From Nitrosopumilales archaeon (GTDB taxonomy: Archaea; Thermoproteota; Nitrososphaeria; Nitrososphaerales; Nitrososphaeraceae), in contig JBIQJB010000041.1 of assembly GCA_044507735.1 (NCBI GenBank), positions 1-14,656 of the forward strand: a stretch of DNA of 14,656 nucleotides, given 5' to 3'. The notes beneath the pieces are model-generated. The model saw only the letters and a program-made list of their open reading frames with translations, was not told where the DNA came from and did not search any database. Position numbers and translations under genes: made by a program. Position 1 is the stretch's first letter; each line of letters starts with the position of its first letter. Positions 2,388 to 14,653 of the stretch are shown here, in pieces.

Positions 2388-2855
2388 TTATAGAGTTGTT
2401 GATTGTTGGGACTTCTTTCTTGCATGCCTGTATAACGACAGGAATGTCATGAGAGTCATCGCAAACAGCAGTATGCCTGTCGATAGATGAGTGGCCACGA
2501 CAATGGGATGCAGTCCGGTGTCAATCACGAAATAGCCGATGGCTATCTGCACCGACATGACTGCCGCGGCTATTATTGCAGTTTTTCTGCCCGGCATGCC
2601 TTTCCTGAACGAATATGCAGCAGTGGCATAGATCAGGCCAGTCGTAATGAGCACCAGAACTCTATGGTAGTGCTCAAAGAAATGCCTCTCTGACGGCAGG
2701 TCAAAGCCGTTTGGGCAGAGCGGCCAGTCAGGGCAAGTCAACCCCAAGTTCGAGGAAGAAATGTAGACCCCCACCAGCATGACAGAATAGAGGACGGCCA
2801 TCGATGCAAATGAGAGGCCGACTCCCACTATGGAACTGGAACGCTGCACTTCCAA
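2388..2855 (-). CDS. ctaA: Heme A synthase, COX15/CtaA family, short four-TM (half-size) form
   Basis: GLTCPDWPLCPNG cysteine loop, EHYHR motif, Q-x3-G in TM3 (VQIAIG) and a second His in VATHL. Start is probably TTG 2855 or GTG 2849 rather than 2882. Confidence 0.88.
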   Translation of the reverse strand: MEVQRSSSIVGVGLSFASMAVLYSVMLVGVYISSSNLGLTCPDWPLCPNGFDLPSERHFFEHYHRVLVLITTGLIYATAAYSFRKGMPGRKTAIIAAAVMSVQIAIGYFVIDTGLHPIVVATHLSTGILLFAMTLMTFLSLYRHARKKSQQSTTL

Positions 2856-2961
2856 CTGGCAAAAAAATTGTACACACGCCAATTATAACCTTGGCATTGA
2901 ACTTTCTTCTTCTCTATTTCCTCATATCCGTTTTATGTGCTGGCGCGCAACTGAGTGTGCA

Positions 2962-4614
2962 ATGGAAAGTACAAGTGCAGATCTAGGGAGCTTTGAGGGC
3001 AAATATCCCAAGGATCTGTTTAACAAAAACGTGGTAGCAGCTGGTGGTCAGGCAATAGGCCACGTAGCAAAAGAGACTGATAATACCATCGTAGTTTTCA
3101 GCGATTCTGGCGATTTGCGCTATGATATCCCCAAGTCAAAGATAGAAGTGTCAGGCGGCTCGGTCGTGGTGAGCGAGCCCCTTGACCAGTATGCGGTGGA
3201 TAAGGACATGCAGATGCCGCCGGACAAGGCGCTCAGGCCGTCGGCCGAGGAGATAATCCAAAAGGCAGGGGAAATCCCGGAGCAACACTCTGCGCCACCA
3301 GAAGTTGAACGCACGTCATCACCGTCAGTGGTAGAAGAGAAGGCGGCCGAAGTGGCCGATGAGTTCAAGGGAGTTGGCCGTGAGTTGGAACAGGCTGCCA
3401 GGACAACCAAGGAAAAGATTGGAGATGTCGGGGCAGCAGCTGCGAACGACGTGGAAACGGCTGCGAAGCAGACCGCAGAACGAGCAGGCGACCTCGCGCG
3501 TTCTGGAGCCAGATCGGTGACTGAAAAAATTGCGGTATCCCAGAGCAACACAGAGGCTGGCTTGAGCGCGGACAATGTGCTCAAGATCGAAAAGGAATCG
3601 AGGCAGCCATCTACAGAGCTTGACCTTGGAAGCTACGAGGGAAAGTATCCAAAGGACCTCTTTAACAAGACCGTCTTGGTAAACGATCAGGTGATCGGCC
3701 GCGTTGCCAAGGAGACAGACGATGTAATAGTGGTGTTCAGCGATACTGACAGCACCATCAGGTTTGACATCCCCAAATCAGAGATCAGACTGGCCGGCAA
3801 CTCTGTCGTTGCCAGCGAGGACTTGCTGTTCAGATTCAGGACGCAGAGGGACGCGCCGATGCCGCCGGACAAGGCGCTCAGGCCATCAGGGGAAGAAATC
3901 CGCGCTGCGGCCGCAGAACAGCAGCAACAGCAGCAACTTGAACCACAGGACAAGAAACTCGCAACAACGCCTGACGCTGTGATGGAAGAGAGGAGTTATC
4001 TTGCGACGGCGCCGCGGCCAGAAACCACGCGCGTATCTGTACCTGAAGGCTACGTTGATACCGAATCGGAACTCTCCAAGAGGTTCAAGAGCGCGCTGTC
4101 CGAGCTAAGGGAGCTGATCGTTGCAGGTGGCAGGGTAGCCAAGAAGAAGGCCGAAGAGGCAAAGGTGCAGGCAGAAGAGAAGCAGATAGAGATGGACGCC
4201 GAATCCATCTCCAGAATGGGCGACCTTGCCACAAGATTTGCTGACTCATTTGAAGATGTGATCTCTGAGATTAGGACAAGGACGTATGCTGATCAAGTGC
4301 ATATCTACGACGGTTTCATAAAACTGATTGACCAGCAGCGCAACTTGGTGCAGGCGCAACGCGACCTTGCGCTTAGGCTCAAGGACTCTGTCCCTGACCC
4401 GGTGGTAGACAACCAGGAGGAGGTCCAGGCACCTCCGGAGCTGCCAGATGACATTGCCGAAAGCAGGACGCTAAGCGAGCGCACAGAGATCACCACCAGC
4501 CCTTCCTCATCTTCATCAGCATCATCAGCGTCATCACCACCGCCAAGAAGCAGGCGACGAACCGGTACTGCTGCTACCAGCAGCAAGGCGGCACGAAAAA
4601 GGAAGAGAACTTAG
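2962..4614 (+). CDS. Hypothetical protein with two PRC-barrel-like repeats, LEA-like linker, coiled coil and basic C-terminal tail
   Basis: Long ORF. Likely start is ATG 2962 (MESTSADLG), with TTTTAT at 2931-2936; the 2830 start overlaps the divergent ctaA. Internal ~92-aa duplication (DLGS[FY]EGKYPKDLFNK.V....IG.VAKETD..IVVFSD...R[YF]DIPKS.I...G.SVV...MPPDKALRPS.EEI). Confidence 0.85.
   Translation: MESTSADLGSFEGKYPKDLFNKNVVAAGGQAIGHVAKETDNTIVVFSDSGDLRYDIPKSKIEVSGGSVVVSEPLDQYAVDKDMQMPPDKALRPSAEEIIQKAGEIPEQHSAPPEVERTSSPSVVEEKAAEVADEFKGVGRELEQAARTTKEKIGDVGAAAANDVETAAKQTAERAGDLARSGARSVTEKIAVSQSNTEAGLSADNVLKIEKESRQPSTELDLGSYEGKYPKDLFNKTVLVNDQVIGRVAKETDDVIVVFSDTDSTIRFDIPKSEIRLAGNSVVASEDLLFRFRTQRDAPMPPDKALRPSGEEIRAAAAEQQQQQQLEPQDKKLATTPDAVMEERSYLATAPRPETTRVSVPEGYVDTESELSKRFKSALSELRELIVAGGRVAKKKAEEAKVQAEEKQIEMDAESISRMGDLATRFADSFEDVISEIRTRTYADQVHIYDGFIKLIDQQRNLVQAQRDLALRLKDSVPDPVVDNQEEVQAPPELPDDIAESRTLSERTEITTSPSSSSSASSASSPPPRSRRRTGTAATSSKAARKRKRT
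2980..3900 (+). repeat. Intragenic domain duplication (copies 2980-3255 and 3622-3900)
   Basis: Two homologous ~92-aa units. They include a 27-nt identical stretch GATGCCGCCGGACAAGGCGCTCAGGCC at 3213-3239 and 3858-3884. Confidence 0.9.
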
Positions 4615-5367: not shown

Positions 5368-5499
5368 TTCTGGCCTATCCAGCTGTGATGGACGACAACA
5401 GCAGTAGTTAGTGGCGGTGTGAATCAAAATTGGAGAATCCTTCACAGAAATCTAATTAAGCATGGAATCCAACATCAAGTCGACCGGCAACAATTGGCT

Positions 5500-6993
5500 T
5501 TGCAGAATGAAGTTTTCAACGCATTATCATACGCCACCAACAAGGGCTTTCAGATCCACCCGGATGCTTTTGCAATGCTAAAGGGCCTTGACGTTGACGT
5601 GCTCAAGACAGTTCAGGAAATCATCAAGTCCAAAAAGCCATCCAAGAACGCGGTCATTTTGGTCGATGACATCAAGAACCTGCTCAACCCCAAAAAGGAA
5701 GGCGGGGATGGGGCAGGGCAAGCAGAGCAGCAGGTTTGCAATGTGTTGATGGACCCGACTCCCAAGGTCACTACGGGCGAAGGGGTTGACGGCTATGCAG
5801 CTCTTTTCAGGAGCAGGTTTGAAAAGTCGATGCGGATCTTGGCTCAGAGGCCGGACAGCAAGCGCATCTCAAAGGTTGCATCAGTAAAGCAGGCATCGAG
5901 AAACACCAGGTTTGTCGAGAGAGGAGAAAAAAGCCTGCATGGCAGTGCCGGCACCACGGTTGTGGCCGGCCTCCTGATGTCGAGGCGAACCAAGAAGAAC
6001 GGTGTTGAGCTTGCGGTCGATGATTATACCGGGATATTATCTGTGATGGCCGTGTCAGAAGAGGCGAAAAAGCAGGCGGCCACGCTTGCGCTTGACCAGA
6101 TGGTGATGCTCGAGCTGGAAAACGGCAAGGGCGCGCCGGGGCTGACCGTCAAGAGCATCATCACTCCAGACATTCCGGATCATTTGCCCAACAAGAGCAA
6201 GTCGGAGACGTATGCGGTGTTGATCTCTGATCTGCATGTAGGCAGCAAGTATTTCATGGAAAAAGAGTTCCTCCGGTTTCTAGATTGGCTATCGTCGTCT
6301 GAGGACGATGACATTGTGCGCAAGATCAAGTTCCTCTGCGTCGGGGGCGATCTTATCGACGGCATCGGCATATTTCCAAATCAGGACAAAGAGTTGTTGA
6401 TGATGGACGCAGGAAAGCAGATGAGCCATGCGGCACAGCTGCTTGCAAAAGTTCCCAAGCACATCAAAGTGCTGGTGATTCCAGGCAACCATGACCCAGG
6501 AAGGCGTGCACTTCCGCAGCCTGCCATCCCCGGCAAGGATCCCAGCGACCACCTCTATGGACTGGAGAACTGCACGATGCTTGGCAACCCTGCGTTTGTG
6601 GAGTTGAACGGCGTGAAATTATTGATGTATCACGGCCAGAGCCTTGACGACGTGATTGCCACGACGCCGGGCCTCAGCTACCAAAGGCCGGCCGAGGCGA
6701 TGAAGGTCCTTCTCAAGGCCCGCCACCTGGCTCCTACATACGGCGAGCGAACGCCCATAGCGCCGGAGCAGGAGGATATGATGGTTATCACCGAGGTGCC
6801 GGACATTTTCCACTCCGGACATGTTCACGTGACGGATGTGCAGAGCTACCGCGGTACGCTTGTGGTCAACTCAGGCGCGTGGCAGAGTCAGACAAAATTC
6901 CAGCAGACCATGGGGATAACGCCGTCGCCGGGGCTGGCAATACTTGTTAACTTGGCAACCCTGCAGCCGTCGATCCAAGACTTTAATCAATGA
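5500..6993 (+). CDS. polB: DNA polymerase D small subunit DP1 (3'-5' proofreading exonuclease)
   Basis: OB-fold region followed by calcineurin-like phosphoesterase motifs ISDLHVGS, GGDLIDG, PGNHD, YHG and HSGHVH. Start is probably TTG 5494/5500 rather than GTG 5419. Confidence 0.96.
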   Translation: MQNEVFNALSYATNKGFQIHPDAFAMLKGLDVDVLKTVQEIIKSKKPSKNAVILVDDIKNLLNPKKEGGDGAGQAEQQVCNVLMDPTPKVTTGEGVDGYAALFRSRFEKSMRILAQRPDSKRISKVASVKQASRNTRFVERGEKSLHGSAGTTVVAGLLMSRRTKKNGVELAVDDYTGILSVMAVSEEAKKQAATLALDQMVMLELENGKGAPGLTVKSIITPDIPDHLPNKSKSETYAVLISDLHVGSKYFMEKEFLRFLDWLSSSEDDDIVRKIKFLCVGGDLIDGIGIFPNQDKELLMMDAGKQMSHAAQLLAKVPKHIKVLVIPGNHDPGRRALPQPAIPGKDPSDHLYGLENCTMLGNPAFVELNGVKLLMYHGQSLDDVIATTPGLSYQRPAEAMKVLLKARHLAPTYGERTPIAPEQEDMMVITEVPDIFHSGHVHVTDVQSYRGTLVVNSGAWQSQTKFQQTMGITPSPGLAILVNLATLQPSIQDFNQ

Positions 6994-8182
6994 GTGACGA
7001 AAAATCTTCCTTGAGTGCTTCCTTGACGGTTGTCAGGGGGACTGTTATCTTGATCTTTTGCGACCGGCCGTAGCGGCCCTGGTTGACAATGTCGGTAGAC
7101 AAGAGACCCTGCAGTTCCAAGTCACTTATGATCTGAGTCATTCGCCGCTGGGTGAGCGGCTTTTGCTCGGTCTCTTTGCACATGGAAAGATAGGTGTCAT
7201 ACACGTCTCCAGTGGTCCCGCTCTTTGACTTCATTACAGCGAGAATCACGAGTTTGTTATGTGTCGTCGCGTTCTTGAGCGCAATGAACGGCGCGTCCCT
7301 TTCCATCCTGTCCTCGCCGGCCCGAACGTGTTTTTCATCAACACGGGTCGCACCTTCTCTCTCTGCAAGCTCGGCAGAAACCCTGAGTAGATCGATGGCC
7401 TTCCTTGCGTCGCCGTGCTCTCTGCCCGCAATTGCTGCGCAGAGGTTGACTGCAGCGTCGGAAATGGCGCCTTCATTAAACGACACTTTGGCACGGTCGT
7501 GGAGGATCTGTCTCAGCTGGTCCACGGTGTAGGGGTTGAACACAAGCTCTTCCTCGCTGAGGCTGCTCCTCACGCGGGGGTCGAGCTTGTCTTTGAAGGT
7601 GAGGCTGTTTGAGATGCCGATCAGCGTGATGAATCCTCCCGTCATTTTCTGGTTGGCCCGTGTAAAGTTGTAGAGGATATCGTCGCCGCTCTTGTCCACC
7701 AGCGAATCGATTTCGTCGATGGCCATAACAACGCTGAGCTTCTTCTTCTGGATATACTGGAGGATTCTGTCGGTCGCCTCGCCCATCGACAGCCCGGTGA
7801 AATGCACCTGCTTTTCGTGCTGCCTGTTTATGCCGAGCTCTTGGGCAATTTCGAACAGGACCTTGTATGCGCTGCCCGCGGTCTTGGCATTGATAAATAA
7901 CACCTTTACCTCCATTTTCAACTCCGCAGCTTTCTTCTCCAGCCTCTCCAAGACATTCCTTGCCGCAGCGGTTTTTCCAGTCCCGGGCTTGCCAAACAAA
8001 AGCAAGTTTGACGGCCGGGCGTTTTTGAAAATTGTCGATAACACCTGTGCAAGGGCCCTTGTTTCTTCATCTCTGAACGGAAGTCTTTCCGGCACGTAAT
8101 CGATATTGAGATACTGCCATGATTTTACCAGCGACTTGCCGCTAGCAGCCCTTGCAAAGATGTTGTCGATATCAGAGCTCAA
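6983..8182 (-). CDS. cdc6: Orc1/Cdc6 replication initiator
   Basis: YVPERLPFRD, Walker A GKPGTGKT, Walker B IDEID, LDPRVRSSL, sensor-2 GDARKAIDLLR and C-terminal winged helix (LTQRRMTQIISDLELQGLL...GRYGRS). Confidence 0.97.
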   Translation of the reverse strand: MSSDIDNIFARAASGKSLVKSWQYLNIDYVPERLPFRDEETRALAQVLSTIFKNARPSNLLLFGKPGTGKTAAARNVLERLEKKAAELKMEVKVLFINAKTAGSAYKVLFEIAQELGINRQHEKQVHFTGLSMGEATDRILQYIQKKKLSVVMAIDEIDSLVDKSGDDILYNFTRANQKMTGGFITLIGISNSLTFKDKLDPRVRSSLSEEELVFNPYTVDQLRQILHDRAKVSFNEGAISDAAVNLCAAIAGREHGDARKAIDLLRVSAELAEREGATRVDEKHVRAGEDRMERDAPFIALKNATTHNKLVILAVMKSKSGTTGDVYDTYLSMCKETEQKPLTQRRMTQIISDLELQGLLSTDIVNQGRYGRSQKIKITVPLTTVKEALKEDFSSLID

Positions 8183-8220
8183 TTATTATTATTCACCATT
8201 GACGGCGCACCAATTTTAAC

Positions 8221-8248
8221 CCGCCGCCCCCTCTTTTTCTTTTGCAGA
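8221..8248 (-). promoter_or_regulatory. Variant ORB-like element adjacent to the cdc6 promoter
   Basis: Minus strand TCTGCAAAAGAAAAAGAGGGGGCGGCGG is an inverted near-copy of 8372-8398. It has a G-string and abuts the putative cdc6 TATA (TTAAAA 8219-8214). Confidence 0.55.
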
Positions 8249-8371
8249 CCATTAATTTGTTAACGTTACCTTAACAGTTATGTTAACAGGTCGTTTTTAA
8301 CCGGCCAAATCAATCATAGCTGATTTTGGTATCAGCTTTATGACGCTTGTTATCAGGAGCTATGAGAAGGC

Positions 8372-8398
8372 TCTGCACAAGAAAACAAGGGGTGGCGG
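8372..8398 (+). promoter_or_regulatory. Variant ORB-like element, inverted relative to the consensus ORBs
   Basis: TCTGCACAAGAAAACAAGGGGTGGCGG aligns ungapped to GTTCCAGTGGAAACAAAGGGG (13/21 positions including the G-string). Its G-string faces ORB 8475-8495. Confidence 0.6.
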
Positions 8399-8474
8399 CA
8401 TGGCCATGATCTGTCTTTTGATTAACAGTGATTAACAGGATGTTAGCCTTGGTTGTCGAAAAGCCCGAAAATGA

Positions 8475-8495
8475 CCCCTTTGTTTCCACTGGAAC
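8475..8495 (-). promoter_or_regulatory. Origin recognition box (ORB)
   Basis: Reverse complement reads GTTCCAGTGGAAACAAAGGGG, the archaeal ORB consensus with G-string. Confidence 0.95.
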
Positions 8496-8536
8496 GTTAA
8501 GGATCGCCCGGCCGCTGTTAACAAGCCCTTGGCAGA

Positions 8537-8557
8537 CCCCTCCATTTCCACTGGAAC
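8537..8557 (-). promoter_or_regulatory. Origin recognition box (ORB)
   Basis: Reverse complement reads GTTCCAGTGGAAATGGAGGGG, a direct repeat of the 8475-8495 ORB 62 bp away. Confidence 0.93.
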
Positions 8558-8724
8558 AGGATCTGGGTAGTTTCCAACCAAAAATTTGGTTAACTAATGG
8601 CAATTGTTAACCAAAATGGCTTCCCTCTCATGCTTGGTTAACAACAGCTAAGCTCTTTGTTATCAACAATGGCAGAGCTCATGTTAAGTGTTAACACGTT
8701 AACAGGAGTAGCTACCTTTAGGAC

Positions 8725-9189
8725 ATGAGCCTTGGAAGGAAGAAGTTCCGAATAGAACTTGAAGATGCCGAGGGGAGCAAGTATAACCTCTCTCTAGAGG
8801 GCAACGTGTCCAAGGAAAAGATAATGAAGATAGTCGAGTTCATGGAGCTTCTCAACATAGAGTCTGGTGGCCCCAATAACGCTGGTGAGAGCGAGATGGC
8901 CTCCTCCATCCGCAGGCAATCGTCGCCGGTCTCTGTTGGCGAAAGGATCTGGAGTTTGGTTGAGGGCAAGTTCCCCTATGGAAGCTTTACCTCGACAGAC
9001 ATCCTCGAATTATACGAGGACCAGTTCAACGAGCCGATCAAGTTGAGCATAATCTCCACATATCTTTCACGATATTCTGACCGCGGAAGGCTGATAAGGA
9101 CACGCCAGGGCAAGGAGTGGGTCTACAAGATAGCTAGACAGCAGCAGGTGCAACCCTCTCCTTCAGCCTCTCCCGACCTGCGTCCGTAA
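8725..9189 (+). CDS. Origin-adjacent protein with C-terminal winged-helix DNA-binding domain
   Basis: C-terminal FTSTDILELYEDQFNEPIKLSIISTYLSRYSDRGRLIRTRQGKEWVYKI is a BlaI/MecI-like wHTH pattern. It follows a small N-terminal beta-beta-alpha domain and a linker. Divergent from cdc6. Confidence 0.85.
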   Translation: MSLGRKKFRIELEDAEGSKYNLSLEGNVSKEKIMKIVEFMELLNIESGGPNNAGESEMASSIRRQSSPVSVGERIWSLVEGKFPYGSFTSTDILELYEDQFNEPIKLSIISTYLSRYSDRGRLIRTRQGKEWVYKIARQQQVQPSPSASPDLRP

Positions 9190-9790
9190 TGTTGTATCTG
9201 AAGGGCTTGGTGTTGACGTCCCTGCTTACCAGCCCAGCGTCATGAAGCTTTTTCATGAGACGGGCCGTGTGCTCACGGGTCCTGCCAACCGCCAGCTGCA
9301 CCTCTCTTGAGGTGCGAGGCTTCTCAGCAAGCAGCTTTAAGATATAGTCGGTCGTTCCGTTGTTGCCCTCCTTTCCATCAGCAACTGCCATTGATGCTGT
9401 GGTAGCATGCACGTGCTGTTGCTGCTGCGTGACTGCTACAGGCTCACTCACGGCCGCTACATGATTTTGCGGCTGCTGTGATGCAGGCCCAGGCTGTGAC
9501 ATAGCCGTCACAGGCTGAGGAGGCGCGGACTGTGACGATCTTGCTTCCATAATATCGATCTTGGCCCTAAGATCTGCAATCATTTTGTCATAATCACGAA
9601 GCCTCCTGGTGTATTCGAGCACGACCGCTTCGACCACTGTCCCGTCCTCTTTGTAATGGCGACCTGCCAGTGCGCTCTTGACCCTTCCGTACACCATCAC
9701 GCTTACCATGCCGGTCACAAACGCAAGCACGCCTGATATCACAAGGTCGTTGGTCAAAAACGTGATAAGTGGCACCAGATCGACGATCAT
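9134..9790 (-). CDS. Membrane-anchored coiled-coil protein with C-terminal MarR/ArsR-like winged helix
   Basis: N-terminal TM (LVISGVLAFVTGMVSVMVY then GRVK), coiled coil (EYTRRLRDYDKMIADLRAKIDIMEAR), S/Q/P/V-rich linker and wHTH (ILKLLAEKPRTSREVQLAVGRTREHTARLMKKLHDAGLVSRD...FRYNITDAG). Confidence 0.88.
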   Translation of the reverse strand: MIVDLVPLITFLTNDLVISGVLAFVTGMVSVMVYGRVKSALAGRHYKEDGTVVEAVVLEYTRRLRDYDKMIADLRAKIDIMEARSSQSAPPQPVTAMSQPGPASQQPQNHVAAVSEPVAVTQQQQHVHATTASMAVADGKEGNNGTTDYILKLLAEKPRTSREVQLAVGRTREHTARLMKKLHDAGLVSRDVNTKPFRYNITDAGRERLKERVAPAAV

Positions 9791-9946
9791 GTCACGGAAA
9801 AACGGCGCAACACCGTGATATAATGCTACGGAACAAGATTATTTTACAATCTAGACATTCTTTTTATCAGCGCATCAATCACAGATATCACGTCATTCAC
9901 GTTCAGTTTACCGTCAACATCACTACCTTCAGAAGCAAATATCACG
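9428..9946. repeat. Array of RTCACR/YGTGAY hexamers spanning two HTH genes
   Basis: 15 copies at 9428, 9477, 9495, 9507, 9531, 9593, 9696, 9714, 9738, 9761, 9791, 9814, 9878, 9887 and 9941. About 1 would be expected per 512 bp at uniform base composition. Confidence 0.7.
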
Positions 9947-10215
9947 CCTATCTGCTCCGCCAGCCTGCCAATAGCATCCAGGGTTTCGGGCTGGATGATC
10001 CCCGTCGATTGCAGAAGGATCATGCTGTACAGGACCGCGCTTACCTTGTCCCGGCACTGCTTTACCTGCCTGTAATAGGCACCTGAACTGATGTTTTGCG
10101 CTCGCCCGCCCCCCTGCAGCCTTTTAGAAATTATGTCAAGTTGACGGGGAGTAAATAAAGAATTTGCAACAATATGCGCATAAAGATTGTTAGAATTGGA
10201 TTTCGAATCGGCCAT
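9844..10215 (-). CDS. Hypothetical protein with HTH-like N-terminal region
   Basis: SLFTPRQLDII...ISSGAYYRQVKQCRDKV resembles a sigma70-r4/Tfx-like HTH, followed by a helical C-terminus. ATG start, TTTTTATT at 10255-10248 upstream, and co-oriented with 9134-9790. Confidence 0.8.
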   Translation of the reverse strand: MADSKSNSNNLYAHIVANSLFTPRQLDIISKRLQGGGRAQNISSGAYYRQVKQCRDKVSAVLYSMILLQSTGIIQPETLDAIGRLAEQIGVIFASEGSDVDGKLNVNDVISVIDALIKRMSRL

Positions 10216-10220
10216 TGGTA

Positions 10221-10238
10221 CTATACAGATTTGTATAG
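10221..10238. promoter_or_regulatory. Palindromic candidate operator
   Basis: CTATACA-GATT-TGTATAG (7-bp inverted repeat) between the TATA-like box and the start codon of 9844-10215. Confidence 0.45.
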
Positions 10239-10457: not shown

Positions 10458-11204
10458 GTGGCACTGGGAAAGGTCGAGCAGCATTTACTGGACGAGATCA
10501 AGAAATACGGCACTATATGCCTCCCGCTAATAGATTCTGAAAACTCTACCGACGCGGCTACTATTGCCAAGAAGGTAGAGGAGAAAGGGGCCTCCGGGAT
10601 CCTAGTAGGCGGTTCGTCAGCCATCGACCAGCTGGAACTGGCCAACGTTGTTGCGGAGATAAAATCCAAGGTCACGATACCCGTGATATTGTTCCCCGGG
10701 AACGTCACAGGAGTATCACCAAAGGCTGACGCGATATTGTTCAGCTCACTTCTCAATTCAGAGAGCCCCTATTTCATAACCGAAGCGCAGGCCCTTGGTG
10801 CGATCGCGGTCAAAAAGTATGGGATCGAGCCCCTCCCGACTGCATACATCATCATAGGCGAGGGCACCGCTGCATGGTTCGTGGGCCGAGCAAGGGGGAT
10901 ACCGTTCCACAAGCCCAACCTGGCAGTGATGTATTCGCTTGCGGCGCAGTACATGGGCATGCGCTTTGTCTACCTCGAAGCCGGCTCGGGCGCATCCCAG
11001 AACGTTTCCCCAGAGATGGTGGCGGCAGTCAGAAAGAACTATGAAGGCACTCTCATTGTAGGTGGGGGCATAAAGTCCCCCGAGACCGCCGGGCACATAG
11101 CAAGAGCAGGAGCGGACATCATCGTCATCGGCACAATGATAGAAAAGGACGGAAACTGGGAAGACAAGTTTTCGTCGATTGTGAAAGCCATCAGGTCGCG
11201 ATAG
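10458..11204 (+). CDS. Geranylgeranylglyceryl phosphate (GGGP) synthase, PcrB family
   Basis: LIDSE, ILVGGS, VILFPGN, DAILFSSLLNS, YLEAGSGA, IVGGGI and ADIIVIGT motifs of the TIM-barrel prenyltransferase for archaeal ether lipids. Confidence 0.95.
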   Translation: MALGKVEQHLLDEIKKYGTICLPLIDSENSTDAATIAKKVEEKGASGILVGGSSAIDQLELANVVAEIKSKVTIPVILFPGNVTGVSPKADAILFSSLLNSESPYFITEAQALGAIAVKKYGIEPLPTAYIIIGEGTAAWFVGRARGIPFHKPNLAVMYSLAAQYMGMRFVYLEAGSGASQNVSPEMVAAVRKNYEGTLIVGGGIKSPETAGHIARAGADIIVIGTMIEKDGNWEDKFSSIVKAIRSR

Positions 11205-11206
11205 CC

Positions 11207-14200
11207 ATGATGTTGGAAGAGGCCGAGGCACGTCTCAAGGATGTGAGAATGCCTGCATATTACAGAAGCTACCAGCACGACATCTTGAGGAACGTCTATC
11301 AAAATTACCAGCATGCGCTCAAGGCCAGAAGGCGGGGGATCGACGTGGCCGATATTGTGGAGCCCAAAATAGCCTACGATCTGGCGGACAGGGTCGCCAA
11401 GATGCACGAAATTGACATTGCGGATCGTCTGCGCGCCCTTCTGGCGGCGACAACGAAGGAAAAGGCCGCATTAAAGATAGCCGAAGAAATCGCTGCGGGA
11501 GAATACGGCTCGGGCGATCTGGAGACCCGGCTTGAAAATGCAGTCAGGGTGTCGCTTGCAGTGGTCACCGAAGGCGTCACGGTTGCACCGCTGCAGGGCA
11601 TCTCAGACGTCACAATAAAGAGCAATGCAGATGGCTCGCAGTACCTGTCGGTATCATTCGCCGGGCCGATCAGGTCGGCAGGCGGAACAGAAGCCGCTCT
11701 GACCATGCTGATCGCGGACCATGCAAGGAAGGTCGCAGGCCTTGGCCGGTACATCGCAAATTCGTTTGACGACGAGACCGGCAGGTTCGTCGAAGAGCTG
11801 CGCATATACGAGCGGGAAGTCATGGGCTTCCAGTTCAAGGTCCTCGACGAAGACGTGGTAAAGTGCATTTCAAGCGTCCCAGTCGAGCTGGACGGGGTCG
11901 ACACCGATCCGGTAGAGGTAGTGGGCCACAAGGGCATGCGCCGCATAGCGACTGACAGGGTGCGCGGGGGAACCCTCCGTGTCATGAACGACGGGCTTAT
12001 CGGCAGGAGCCGAAAGCTGTTAAAGCTCGTCGAGACGCTGAAACTGGACGGCTGGGACTGGCTCAAGGACCTGAAAGGAGCCATCCAGACAGGCGACGAC
12101 GATGCGGCCCACCACAGGATGTCGGAGGTTATTACTGGCAGGCCAGTGCTCTCCATGGCCAAAAAGATAGGCGGGTTCCGCCTGCGCTATGGCCGCTGCT
12201 ACAATACCGGTTTTGCCACCGTTGGAATCCACCCCGCGGTGCCAGCCCTGCTCAACTATGCTATCGTCGCCGGCACGCAGATCAAGATGGACATACCTGG
12301 CAAGGCTTCGACCATCGCGCTCGTCGACACCCTTGAAGCTCCGATAGTGAGGATGGACGATGGCCGGGTGATGCCCGTTCATACAGTCGAGCAGGCGGAA
12401 AAGATCCGCACGCGGGTCAGCAAGATCCTGTACATCGGCGACATGCTGATCAGCTACGGCGACTTTCTTGAAAATAACGCGCAGCTTTTGCCTGCAAGCT
12501 ATGTGGAAGAAGCATGGGCGCAGCAGCTCAAGTCAAAGCTGATTTCTCTTCCCGCTGATTCTGGCAATAATGGCTGCAGCACCAACAGAGAGCGGCTGAT
12601 CCAGCTGGCAGAAAACCCGCTGATTATCCCGACTGTAGAGGAAGCATTTGAAATATGCAAGCTTGAAATGCCACTGCATCCAAAATATTCGTTCTACTGG
12701 GACACAGTTGCTCTTGACGACCTCATTTATCTGAAAGACAGGCTCGCTGCTGCAGCAGTAGCAGTAGATGATGATGGTAGTGGTAGTGGCAGTGGTACTA
12801 GCAGCATACCAGCCGACGCAAGGCTGAAGGACATTCTTGAAAAGCTTGGAGTCACTCATTCCATTGCAAAAGACAGGATCTTGCTTGACGACAAGACACA
12901 GGCCCTCTCGCTGATGCGACTGCTCTCCGGGCCGGTGGTGGAAGCCAAGGATTCGATCGAGTTTGTAACAAAATCATCCGGCATCAAGGTGATGCCCAAG
13001 TTCGCCTCCACCATCGCGGTGCGGGTCGGCAGGCCGGAAAAGGCCGCGGAGCGCAAGATGAAGCCGCCAGTGCACGCCCTCTTTCCAATCGGCACGAAAG
13101 GCGGCGCGACCCGCGACATTCTGAAGGCGGCCAAGGAGGACTCGTTCTACACCGAAATAGCCAATCGCTACTGCGACGCCTGCAGATTGCCGTCAGTTGG
13201 AACCCACTGCCGCGTATGCGGCGCATCGACGATGATCCGGAATCTCTGCATCGTTTGCAGGGGACAGGTCGAAGAGGGTGAAAAATGCGAGCGCTGCGGC
13301 AAGGAAGGGCGGACGTATTCGTCTGTCAACTTTCCGCTCAAGGACGCGTTGGACAATGCCAAGAAAAAACTTGGCGTGGCGCCGGAAGAGCCGTTCAAGG
13401 GCGTCAAGTCCCTAATGAGCCGGCACAGGTCTGCAGAGCCTCTTGAAAAGGGGATACTGCGGCAAAAGCACAATTTGTACGCATTCAAGGACGGCACTGT
13501 CAGGTTCGACGCTACCAACGAACCCCTGACCCATTTCAAACCGGCATGGATAGGGGTGAGCGTACAGAAGCTGAAGGAACTTGGGTACACCCGCGACTAC
13601 CTTGGCAAGGAGCTCACGTCGCCGGACCAGATAGTGGAGCTGCTCATGCAGGACGTGATAATCCCCCGCGACTCTGCAAAGCACCTTCTCAACACCGCGA
13701 AATTCATCGACGAGGAGCTGGAAAAGCTGTATGATCTCGAGCCGTTCTATAACGTGTCTTCCATCGACGACCTCGTAGGGCACCTGGTAGTTGGATTGGC
13801 TCCCCATACGTCGGTAGGCATCATGGGCAGGATAATTGGCTTTACAGATTCGCAGGTCTGCCTCGCTTCGCCTGTTTGGCACTCGGCCAAGCGCAGAGAC
13901 TGCGACGGAGACGCCGACTCGGTCATGATGCTGATGGACGCTTTCTTGAATTTCTCATTTGACTTCTTGCCGGATAAGATAGGTGGGCTCATGGACGCGC
14001 CGCTGCTGATACAGCCCGTGGTGCTGCCGCACGAAGTGCAGCGTCAGGCGCACAACGTGGACATTGCAAGTTCATATCCGATTGAATTCTACGAAGCCAC
14101 CTGGAAGCAGGCCAAAGCGGCCGACGCAGCCGGCATGATCGAAACGATCAAGAACAGGATAGGCGACGAGAACCAGTTCTTTGGCTACGGCTTTACTCAC

Positions 14201-14653
14201 TTCACCGACGCCCTGGTCACAAAGGCACAGAGGAGCGCCTATTCTACCCTCAACACCATGGAGGAAAAGCTCAAGATGCAGTTTGATACCGCGAAGCTGA
14301 TCAATGCGGTAGACGCTGACGAGGTGGCCGCGATGGTTCTCACGACGCACATACTGCCGGACATCATGGGCAACATGCGGTCGTACTCCTCACAATCATT
14401 CCGCTGCACTGCGTGCGGAGCCAAGTTCCGAAGGATGCCCCTTCTGGGCAAGTGCACCGAGTGCCAGAGCGATCTGATTCAGACCGTGACGAGGGGCGCT
14501 GTGGAAAAGTACCTCGGCATCGCAACCGGCATGTGCCAAGAGTACAAGATAAACGACTATTTGCGCAGCAGGGTAGAATCTATATCAACAGAACTGAAGT
14601 TGATCTTCAAGGAAGAGAAAAAGTTGCAGTCAACGCTCACCGATTTCATCTAG
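11207..14653 (+). CDS. polC: DNA polymerase D large subunit DP2 (no intein)
   Basis: TEGVTVAPLQGI, FAGPIRSAGGT, GGFRLRYGR, RVGRPEKA, central Zn-finger cluster, FKDGTVRFD, LAPHTSVG, catalytic KRRDCDGDAD, GGLMDAPL, C-terminal CTAC...CTEC and PIP box QSTLTDFI. Confidence 0.98.
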   Translation: MMLEEAEARLKDVRMPAYYRSYQHDILRNVYQNYQHALKARRRGIDVADIVEPKIAYDLADRVAKMHEIDIADRLRALLAATTKEKAALKIAEEIAAGEYGSGDLETRLENAVRVSLAVVTEGVTVAPLQGISDVTIKSNADGSQYLSVSFAGPIRSAGGTEAALTMLIADHARKVAGLGRYIANSFDDETGRFVEELRIYEREVMGFQFKVLDEDVVKCISSVPVELDGVDTDPVEVVGHKGMRRIATDRVRGGTLRVMNDGLIGRSRKLLKLVETLKLDGWDWLKDLKGAIQTGDDDAAHHRMSEVITGRPVLSMAKKIGGFRLRYGRCYNTGFATVGIHPAVPALLNYAIVAGTQIKMDIPGKASTIALVDTLEAPIVRMDDGRVMPVHTVEQAEKIRTRVSKILYIGDMLISYGDFLENNAQLLPASYVEEAWAQQLKSKLISLPADSGNNGCSTNRERLIQLAENPLIIPTVEEAFEICKLEMPLHPKYSFYWDTVALDDLIYLKDRLAAAAVAVDDDGSGSGSGTSSIPADARLKDILEKLGVTHSIAKDRILLDDKTQALSLMRLLSGPVVEAKDSIEFVTKSSGIKVMPKFASTIAVRVGRPEKAAERKMKPPVHALFPIGTKGGATRDILKAAKEDSFYTEIANRYCDACRLPSVGTHCRVCGASTMIRNLCIVCRGQVEEGEKCERCGKEGRTYSSVNFPLKDALDNAKKKLGVAPEEPFKGVKSLMSRHRSAEPLEKGILRQKHNLYAFKDGTVRFDATNEPLTHFKPAWIGVSVQKLKELGYTRDYLGKELTSPDQIVELLMQDVIIPRDSAKHLLNTAKFIDEELEKLYDLEPFYNVSSIDDLVGHLVVGLAPHTSVGIMGRIIGFTDSQVCLASPVWHSAKRRDCDGDADSVMMLMDAFLNFSFDFLPDKIGGLMDAPLLIQPVVLPHEVQRQAHNVDIASSYPIEFYEATWKQAKAADAAGMIETIKNRIGDENQFFGYGFTHFTDALVTKAQRSAYSTLNTMEEKLKMQFDTAKLINAVDADEVAAMVLTTHILPDIMGNMRSYSSQSFRCTACGAKFRRMPLLGKCTECQSDLIQTVTRGAVEKYLGIATGMCQEYKINDYLRSRVESISTELKLIFKEEKKLQSTLTDFI

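Follow-up and report, generated by a model that had tools for sequence, protein, structure and literature searches.

Short DNA repeats that serve both as operator and as platform for a higher-order complex are known from parC-ParR of plasmid R1 and from iteron-type arrays, with about ten or more copies each; the parC-ParR repeats are non-coding and lie upstream of the genes, their binders are ribbon-helix-helix proteins and the motor is actin-like. ToxR and CadC are bound to the membrane by one helix, with the DNA-binding domain N-terminal and a sensor domain in the periplasm. For archaea outside the Sulfolobales, chromosome positioning, segregation and re-licensing are largely unknown, and the available text of a cell-cycle review names SegAB alone for archaeal DNA segregation (PMC7617429). 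As far as the available texts go, N. maritimus has a single cdc6-adjacent origin with origin recognition boxes (ORBs), which is the accepted layout (PMC4010727, PMC5797428), and RicO of S. aureus unites in one protein an N-terminal DNA-binding domain, a coiled coil and, as its membrane-binding element, a C-terminal amphipathic helix, and anchors origins without needing ParA, the motif ricS being confined to the origin-proximal region as nine 18-bp sites over ~700 kb (10.64898/2026.03.06.710092). Here we describe a 14,656-nt stretch, called the window below, from a soil-dwelling, ammonia-oxidising Nitrosopumilales archaeon (assembly GCA_044507735.1) with close relatives catalogued as Nitrososphaera. 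It is the entire contig C39 of a 2.33-Mb, 97% complete genome, and in it a putative replication origin (oriC) beside orc1/cdc6 is followed by three genes, named A, B and C, and accompanied by two arrays of short DNA motifs.

Neither array has an equally dense counterpart elsewhere in the genome. Both adjoin the ORBs and travel with the three single-copy genes next to cdc6 throughout the class Nitrososphaeria and beyond it, and selection acting at the DNA level maintains the two. The gene-array set probably organises or anchors the origin region. In the texts reached by our literature search (PMC4104785, PMC4010727, PMC5797428 and PMC7617429 among them), which lay outside the supplementary arCOG neighbourhood lists that may hold them, no description of the A-B-C genes or their motifs was found.

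Results

The first array is interleaved with origin recognition boxes

The intergenic region between cdc6 and A (8183-8724), which holds divergent promoters, ORBs and TGTTAAC boxes and shows phylogenetic footprints in an eight-sequence genus alignment, contains two exact copies of TTTCCACTGGAAC (8483-8495 and 8545-8557), each preceded by a C-string. The CCCC string and the dyad together form ORB 1 (8475-8495), an invariant block in the alignment, and ORB 2 (8537-8557) follows in the same orientation 62 bp away; TTTCCACTGGA occurs three times in the whole genome, two of them in this gap. A degenerate ORB-like box near the cdc6 start (8227-8247; likeness by eye, unscored) is conserved in the genus alignment as well, and an inverted ORB-like half, GAAAACAAGGGGTGG (8381-8395; likeness again by eye), has an invariant GAAA..AGGGG.G. 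With ORBs, conserved in relatives, in the gap beside orc1/cdc6, the region has the sequence hallmarks of an archaeal oriC of the ORB/Orc1-Cdc6 type, in line with the initial annotation, which had placed the three genes directly beside an origin.

Array 1 (8258-8704) comprises eight GTTAAC sites (14 TGTTAA/TTAACA words) that alternate with the ORBs and extend over the core promoter of A. GTTAAC occurs 10 times in the window, eight of them within 8259-8703, against 1.74 expected window-wide, and none of 200 shuffles reached 10, so the over-representation across oriC and the A promoter that had been noted from the sequence alone is borne out. The eight-copy cluster is also the densest among the 228 GTTAAC copies of the genome, the runner-up having two, and the 14 TGTTAA/TTAACA words at oriC face three in the next cluster; an unbiased 6-mer screen of the cdc6-A gap ranked TGTTAA and GTTAAC first. 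In its complete form the box is palindromic, TGTTAACA, and half-boxes are numerous. The boxes gather at both promoter ends, i.e. on the cdc6 side (8259-8287) and over the A core promoter (8589-8703), and they abut or separate the ORBs, as exemplified by those at 8497 and 8517 between ORB 1 and ORB 2. A restriction-modification explanation of GTTAAC was dropped, as the genome shows no special avoidance of the site (observed/expected 0.91).

The second array runs through coding sequence and exceeds a synonymous null

Array 2 (9428-9946) comprises 15 RTCACR half-sites, which extend over codons ~9-121 of B, across its promoter gap and over the ~34 codons at the end of C; nine sites lie on the plus and six on the minus strand, which argues for duplex DNA rather than RNA as the target. 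The aligned consensus is a[T/C]ATCAC[A/G], RTCACR being effectively ATCACA, and in relatives the sites often form TGTGAT-ATCACA palindromes. RTCACR had been reported as strongly over-represented over B and C, and this holds for the local cluster, with a maximum of 15 per 520 bp against a mean of 4.0 and a maximum of 7 in dinucleotide shuffles (0/500), but not across the whole window, where 35 sites compare with 28.1 expected and 25 of 200 shuffles reach 35. The cluster ranks second among 528 patterns of the same shape, after one GTTAAC-derived pattern only, and is the genome-wide maximum, the runner-up holding six sites. It begins ~0.7 kb past the last origin box and spans 0.7-1.2 kb from it, which corrects the separation of about 1 kb given initially. 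The array runs on through the 53-bp non-coding gap between B and C (9791-9843, minus strand), where the presumed promoter and start codon of B are enclosed by two sites: a TATA-like CATTATAT followed by ATCACG (9813-9825, minus strand), read as a probable promoter element, and a CGTGAC abutting the B start codon at the gap edge (9788-9796, minus strand).

The array was compared with a synonymous null in 18 loci, keeping the protein sequence fixed and shuffling synonymous codons 300 times. In the window, B holds 12 sites versus 4.3±1.7 under within-gene shuffling (0/300), and 3.0±1.4 would be expected with the codon usage of the flanking genes. The B count lay above all 300 shuffles in seven loci (the window, L013, L015, L016, L020, L022 and L024), was reached by 1-8 shuffles in five (L046, L029, L018, L026 and L039) and by 24-44 in three (L014, L043 and L028), and was unenriched in three (L031, L035 and L040). 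The controls A and cdc6 were flat, except for A in L029 (29/300) and cdc6 in L015 (13/300). Part of the excess in B is due to amino-acid choice, namely VT and SQ codons in the variable linker, which suggests that the linker peptide has itself been shaped by the DNA motif. Site spacings peak at 9, 18, 12 and 23 bp; since kindred loci of the genus and codon periodicity account for most of this signal, no phasing is claimed.

Genes and arrays are conserved across the class and the phylum

Of 151 Nitrososphaeria genomes that are 85% complete or better, 146 carry gene A (the unpublished G147 included), and B was found in 38 of 41 relatives (the unpublished G009 and G022 included), while cdc6, A, B and C lie within ~5 kb in all five genomes examined from other families. 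The class comparison covers 42 loci holding A, the window counted, from roughly 22 families. In 39 of these cdc6 adjoins A, the exceptions being L027 (contig end), L054 (a 3.5-kb contig) and L045 (A moved), and in 37 B and C do so (exceptions L027, L032, L033, L038 and L045); most class loci retain the full order DP1-cdc6-gap-A-B-C-GGGPS-DP2, in which DP1 and DP2 are the subunits of DNA polymerase D (PolD) and GGGPS is geranylgeranylglyceryl phosphate (GGGP) synthase. In the phylum Thermoproteota the A profile matches 134 of 201 genomes, and among 20 loci from 20 genomes of other classes cdc6 lies within 5 kb of A in 11; 13 possess B (one a weak match, E 9.9e-6) and 10 possess C. As the genus-level loci are close kin, the weight of the comparison rests on the ~22 class families and the 20 genomes beyond the class.

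The motifs recur with the genes. TGTTAA or GTTAAC is among the top four enriched 6-mers in 19 of 29 cdc6-A gaps; ATTCAC, TGTGAA or AGTGAA stands among them instead in five (L028, L037, L039, L040 and L041), L014 and L015 hold GTGAAC/GTTCAC repeats by count, and in other classes TGTGAA or ATTCAC is among the top words of six of 11 gaps. In the B-C span, array 2 reaches at least three-fold the flank density in 24 of 30 loci scored, a tally that omits seven loci of families f18, f20 and f21 (L029-L031, L034-L036 and L042). Outside the class it is seen at B in L058 (10.3 versus 1.7 per kb) and L062 (8.5 versus 0.6), also in L065 and L068, and is weaker in L069 and L056. At orthologous loci, the order cdc6-oriC-A-B-C is conserved across Nitrososphaeria and in other Thermoproteota classes and both arrays are conserved beside oriC; the initial annotation had named a lack of such conservation as grounds for rejecting its proposal, and the comparison does not refute it.

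Two variations of the gap were noted. In L018 and L019 (G032) it is ~2.9 kb long and contains extra open reading frames (ORFs), one HEAT-repeat-like, and the ORBs and TGTTAAC boxes nonetheless adjoin A. The TGTGAA(C/T) origin boxes of L014, L015, L028, L037-L041, L047-L055, L058 and others, often direct repeats 10-11 bp apart (e.g. L015), are one base off the B-C word TGTGAT, and the origin-box and B-C motif families may share an ancestor.

Rearranged loci link array 2 to B-C and array 1 to the origin

In G086 and G057, B and C lie 6-9 kb from A and cdc6, and the RTCACR sites cluster with B-C (15 versus 6 elsewhere in 11 kb in G086; 11 versus 3 elsewhere in 10.5 kb in G057). G153 has its A gene on a different contig, away from any array; still side by side in this genome are cdc6, two ORBs, seven TGTTAA/TTAACA words, B and C, and array 2 with 11 sites. 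In family f22, searches with the B and C profiles found neither gene and no array 2 was seen, and A still stands behind ORBs interleaved with GTGAA boxes. From these rearranged genomes it follows that array 2 accompanies B-C and that array 1 accompanies oriC rather than the A promoter.

The recognition helix of A varies with the origin box. Where it carries Thr (K.ST[IL]STYL), GTGAA is more frequent than GTTAA in 13 of 14 gaps, all but L053 (4 versus 6), and where it lacks Thr, GTTAA outnumbers GTGAA in 24 of 24. On the Cdc6 tree the supported branches force at least two changes of the Thr state, and the best tree has six. Because independent events on supported branches are few, the link between Thr and box is suggestive and statistically unestablished. 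The B helix correlates with the gap motif more poorly than the A helix does.

A and B are predicted winged-helix proteins, B with a probable membrane anchor

The three ORFs lie exactly where they were first placed: A at 8725-9189 (plus strand, 154 residues), B at 9134-9790 (minus strand, 218 residues) and C at 9844-10215 (minus strand, 123 residues), C being upstream of B on the same strand. A and B converge with 3′ ends overlapping by 56 nt (9134-9189), an overlap kept in the genus (e.g. L020, 3826-3881) and only 0-11 nt long in other families. One sequencing run recorded as RNA (X20) covers parts of A (8752-9102) and B (9349-9605) with four short contigs; these hint at expression of the two genes at best, since DNA carry-over is possible.

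A consists of a β-hairpin/helix N-domain, a linker and a C-terminal BlaI/MecI/Fur-like winged helix (residues ~70-137). Its AlphaFold2 model from a 31-sequence alignment has a mean predicted local distance difference test (pLDDT) score of 73, above 90 at residues 70-137 and less confident in the N-domain. Foldseek returned DNA-binding domains of the MecI/BlaI, Fur and ArsR types (E 4.5e-3 to 4e-2), a profile search of PDB sequences gave weak CopR/BlaI matches (E 0.026-0.14), and 20 of 31 orthologues match Penicillinase_R weakly (best E 2.3e-6), all of which agrees with the winged helix-turn-helix (wHTH) called initially. The A of the window has no Pfam match at E≤0.1; it falls below the Penicillinase_R cut-off, and its model has nothing after the wing. 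Among the listed relatives, all 120 that bear a name are called 'hypothetical'. BlaI/MecI/CopY repressors, the closest class to this winged helix, have operators built on TGT/ACA cores, as is TGTTAACA; they dimerise through a C-terminal domain, whereas A lacks one and has the N-terminal β-hairpin/helix domain instead. A comparison of A with B by hhalign, followed as a possible relationship, yielded generic winged-helix likeness only (probability 57%) and was set aside.

B, a single-copy gene, is predicted to be laid out as an N-out single membrane helix (residues 16-34), a helical stretch, a variable Q/P-rich linker and a C-terminal winged helix. Hydropathy confirms the membrane helix proposed for it: 26 of 28 orthologues have one N-terminal hydrophobic segment (KD19 of at least 1.6), and the flanks are net negative on the N-side and net positive on the C-side in most, a charge pattern that places the winged helix in the cytoplasm. 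The helix begins at residues 1-18 in all 28, leaving an N-flank of at most ~16 residues, and no ToxR-like extracytoplasmic sensor domain was found in any of them. The wHTH ascribed to B is supported by conservation and by sub-threshold Pfam matches at residues 149-211 (TrmB 22.5 bits, cut-off 25.6; HVO_A0261_N 23.7, cut-off 35; HTH_27 16.2, cut-off 22.2) without any family cut-off being reached, and the domain is likely of the TrmB/MarR-type winged-helix fold class. Its recognition helix, REH..R..K, is invariant in 28 of 28 class orthologues and reads SREHTARLMKKLY, identically, in other classes too.

C, described at first as HTH-like, finds no such support in Pfam, Foldseek or orthologue scans. 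Its AlphaFold2 model is all-helical, with five helices (pLDDT 85.2; predicted TM-score 0.73), Foldseek found no structural neighbour in the PDB (best E 2.1), a profile search of PDB sequences returned nothing meaningful, and no common Pfam family emerged from 28 orthologues or from 40 of the 150 library relatives listed. In a library of 1.84 billion proteins C has 436 cluster representatives at E≤0.001, and those among the 150 matches listed are small stand-alone proteins. One lead, a protein-atlas cluster of Hadarchaeota with Sigma70_r4 in 14% of its members and a score of 0.81, was judged too weak and was not used. None of A, B and C has a ParB-type Pfam match at E≤0.1.

The surrounding block and other features of the genome

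The three genes lie in a block that runs DP1, orc1/cdc6, the 542-bp gap, A, B, C, GGGP synthase and DP2. Its left end is the PolD small subunit DP1 (5419-6993, plus strand; Pfam DNA_pol_E_B 2.9e-17 and Metallophos), whose position is kept in relatives and which converges with orc1/cdc6 (6983-8182, minus strand), the two stop codons overlapping by 11 nt (6983-6993). The orc1/cdc6 product scores 363.6 bits with TIGR02928 (cut-off 181.3) and carries Cdc6_lid and Cdc6_C; it is the sole close copy in the genome. On the right follow GGGP synthase (10458-11204, plus strand; PcrB 1e-52; NF003198 314 bits), a conserved block member, and the PolD large subunit DP2 (11207-14653, plus strand; identified by tblastn to relatives), which forms the right block end and runs off the window. 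Throughout the class this lipid-synthesis gene, GGGP synthase, occupies the place between C and DP2 amid replication genes. It holds a minor cluster of three RTCACR sites (10671-10709), which in the window lies within the synonymous null (31/300) and is accounted for by the conserved VTIPVILFPGNVTG peptide; RTCACR in GGGPS exceeds the null in L015, L028, L031 and L039, e.g. 9 versus 2.0 in L028.

Farther left, an ORF at 461-1393 encodes an adenylate/guanylate-cyclase catalytic domain (1.4e-14) with a weak resolvase-type HTH N-terminal to it, and a response-regulator-like ORF lies at 1962-2333. A 594-residue ORF (2830-4614) has no Pfam match and contains two copies of a ~90-residue unit (GS[FY]EGKYPKDLFNK ... 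VVFSD ... DIPKS ... PPDKALRPS.EEI), after which come a helical stretch and a tail rich in Ser, Arg and Lys. Scans of the window for Rfam families and tRNAs returned nothing. A ParA-type ATPase is absent from the window, as already stated in the initial annotation: genome-wide searches with PF13614 and PF01656 gave matches on six other contigs (C20, C22, C40, C24, C6 and C17) and none on C39. A second cdc6-like gene of this genome (G000; 27% identity) lies on C24 (90627-92865), adjoining a six-site RTCACR cluster and an ORF whose likeness to CbiA/ParA is weak (E 7.4e-4); the cluster ties with other second-rank clusters and may be due to chance, and the region is possibly an integrated element.

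Discussion

Judged from its sequence, the locus may be an ancient origin-side nucleoprotein module in which A reads the origin boxes and B anchors origin-proximal DNA to the membrane through its own array, a reading that we favour and hold at a little short of an even chance. A would be a BlaI/MecI-type winged helix with a private N-domain, reading TGTTAAC boxes (elsewhere TGTGAA) that interleave with Orc1/Cdc6 boxes and cover both divergent promoters; sitting on the origin, it would set the expression of cdc6 and of A itself. B would be held by its N-terminal membrane helix with the winged helix in the cytoplasm, where it would bind the ATCACA half-sites arrayed over the B gene and promoter and the end of C, the candidate targets being TGTGATATCACA for the winged helix of B and TGTTAACA for A. 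Bound there, B would keep ~0.5 kb of DNA near the origin attached to the cytoplasmic membrane and repress its own promoter, and C could assist as a small helical partner. The net effect would be that the newly replicated origin region is attached to the membrane and positioned without a dedicated ParA motor in the locus.

The uniqueness of the arrays (15 versus 6 sites; 8 versus 2) supports such a module, because a general regulator would have many targets. In addition, the size of array 2, its location in coding sequence and its genomic uniqueness, the lack of a sensor in B, and the fact that array 1 stays at oriC even where the A gene has gone speak for a function beyond regulation. An origin-coating protein together with a membrane-anchored wHTH protein on a second array had been suggested in the initial annotation; the array that moves with B-C, the boxes that stay at oriC and the covariation of the A helix fit this assignment, while binding, membrane attachment and a role in segregation stand as predictions.

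Several points weigh against the module. Which protein reads which array is deduced from comparison of loci, and the binding, localisation and phenotype of A and B are predicted roles; the origin itself is placed by its ORBs, cdc6 and the N. maritimus precedent rather than mapped in this genome. The locus holds no motor protein, and plain autorepression would also predict an array over B's own promoter. Array 2 stays below three-fold in six of the scored loci (L015, L049, L050, L053, L054 and L055), is weak or absent in the seven f18, f20 and f21 loci (L029-L031, L034-L036 and L042) despite the same B helix, and is absent in L060, L064 and L072-L075, where the B helix is again the same. The Thr/box covariation gives one independent pair only on supported branches, and outside the class Ala goes with either box variant (TGTGAA in L058, GTTAAC in L062).

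A simpler account, which we think rather unlikely, would have A and B as ordinary local transcription factors, A controlling the divergent cdc6 and A promoters and so the initiator through the cell cycle, B autoregulating the C-B unit, with its anchor serving the regulated release or sequestration of the factor instead of DNA tethering. It agrees with the clustering of array-1 boxes at the two promoter ends (8259-8287 and 8589-8703), with the two array-2 sites that bracket the presumed B promoter and start codon, and with the repressor-type winged-helix classes of both DNA-binding domains; yet 15 half-sites over 520 bp of coding sequence, held against synonymous drift, exceed the needs of an operator, B has no extracytoplasmic sensing domain (N-flank at most ~16 residues), the origin boxes remain at oriC after the A gene has left, and it is hard to see what a regulator would achieve with its own gene as the sole dense target. 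An account in which the arrays have no function at the DNA level and reflect codon usage, low-complexity peptides (VT, SQ, VI) or chance is close to refuted: several sites do fall in the Q/P/V/T-rich B linker and in the VISVI peptide of C, and the protein sequence alone predicts 3.0-4.3 sites in B, but none of 300 synonymous shuffles reaches the observed count in seven loci and none of 500 window shuffles reaches 15, the cluster is unique in the genome and extends into non-coding DNA, and families whose B proteins are no more than 18-39% identical show enrichment of the same hexamer.

The module might instead control replication initiation, which on balance we consider unlikely: A would modulate Orc1/Cdc6 loading or unwinding at the ORBs, and B would sequester the just-fired origin at the membrane and block re-initiation, for which the SeqA-dependent sequestration of E. 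coli oriC offers a functional parallel. The TGTTAAC boxes that abut and separate the ORBs (8497, 8517), the flanking of the block by DP1, cdc6 and DP2 throughout the class and the phylum-wide linkage to cdc6 would all suit such a role, which is at odds with an array 2 that is kept even 6-9 kb from oriC and with family f22, where no B and C were found and a normal-looking ORB origin persists.

Extended to the phylum, the attachment reading becomes doubtful, if still worth stating, namely that most PolD-replicating Thermoproteota (Nitrososphaeria and several sister classes) would share an ancient ParA-independent attachment of origin to membrane, with B clamped to the ATCACA array in its own gene and paired with an origin-coating A whose box specificity co-evolved with oriC. 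The spread over much of the phylum and the tie to cdc6 suggest a core function rather than a lineage quirk. The locus supplies three proteins and two short, unique DNA targets that are directly testable in cultured Nitrososphaera and Nitrosopumilus, together with a specificity prediction, in which Thr versus Ile/Val in the A recognition helix (KLS-I-ISTYL) would correspond to TGTGAA versus TGTTAA. Array 2 is moreover a clear case of a putative protein-binding array maintained inside coding sequence. If the attachment reading is true, it would give a molecular form to the membrane attachment proposed in the replicon model and would be the first chromosome-positioning machinery defined for ammonia-oxidising archaea.

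Set beside described systems, the region resembles Sulfolobus oriC1 and the Pyrococcus and N. maritimus oriC in its cdc6-adjacent gap, its ORBs with dyad and G/C string and the replication genes alongside, and differs from the ORB origins described in the texts searched by its TGTTAAC boxes, the A-B-C genes and the ATCACA array. With ParB-parS and SegAB it shares a centromere-like cluster near the origin and near the candidate binder's own gene; unlike ParABS and SegAB, it has no ParA or SegA in the locus and no ParB-type Pfam match in A, B or C, and its sites are short half-sites where parS consists of 16-bp palindromes. In contrast to parC-ParR, array 2 has its repeats spread through genes and, as candidate binder, a winged-helix protein anchored in the membrane. 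Like ToxR and CadC, B ties a cytoplasmic winged helix to a single membrane helix, but the winged helix is C-terminal and at most ~16 residues lie outside the membrane. The nearest functional precedent appears to be RicO/ricS, a likeness drawn from its description and not from sequence: B too combines a DNA-binding domain with a membrane element, in reversed order, and its candidate sites are confined to the origin-proximal region, with an N-terminal transmembrane helix, a C-terminal winged helix and one dense array of 6-bp half-sites in its own gene setting it apart from RicO.

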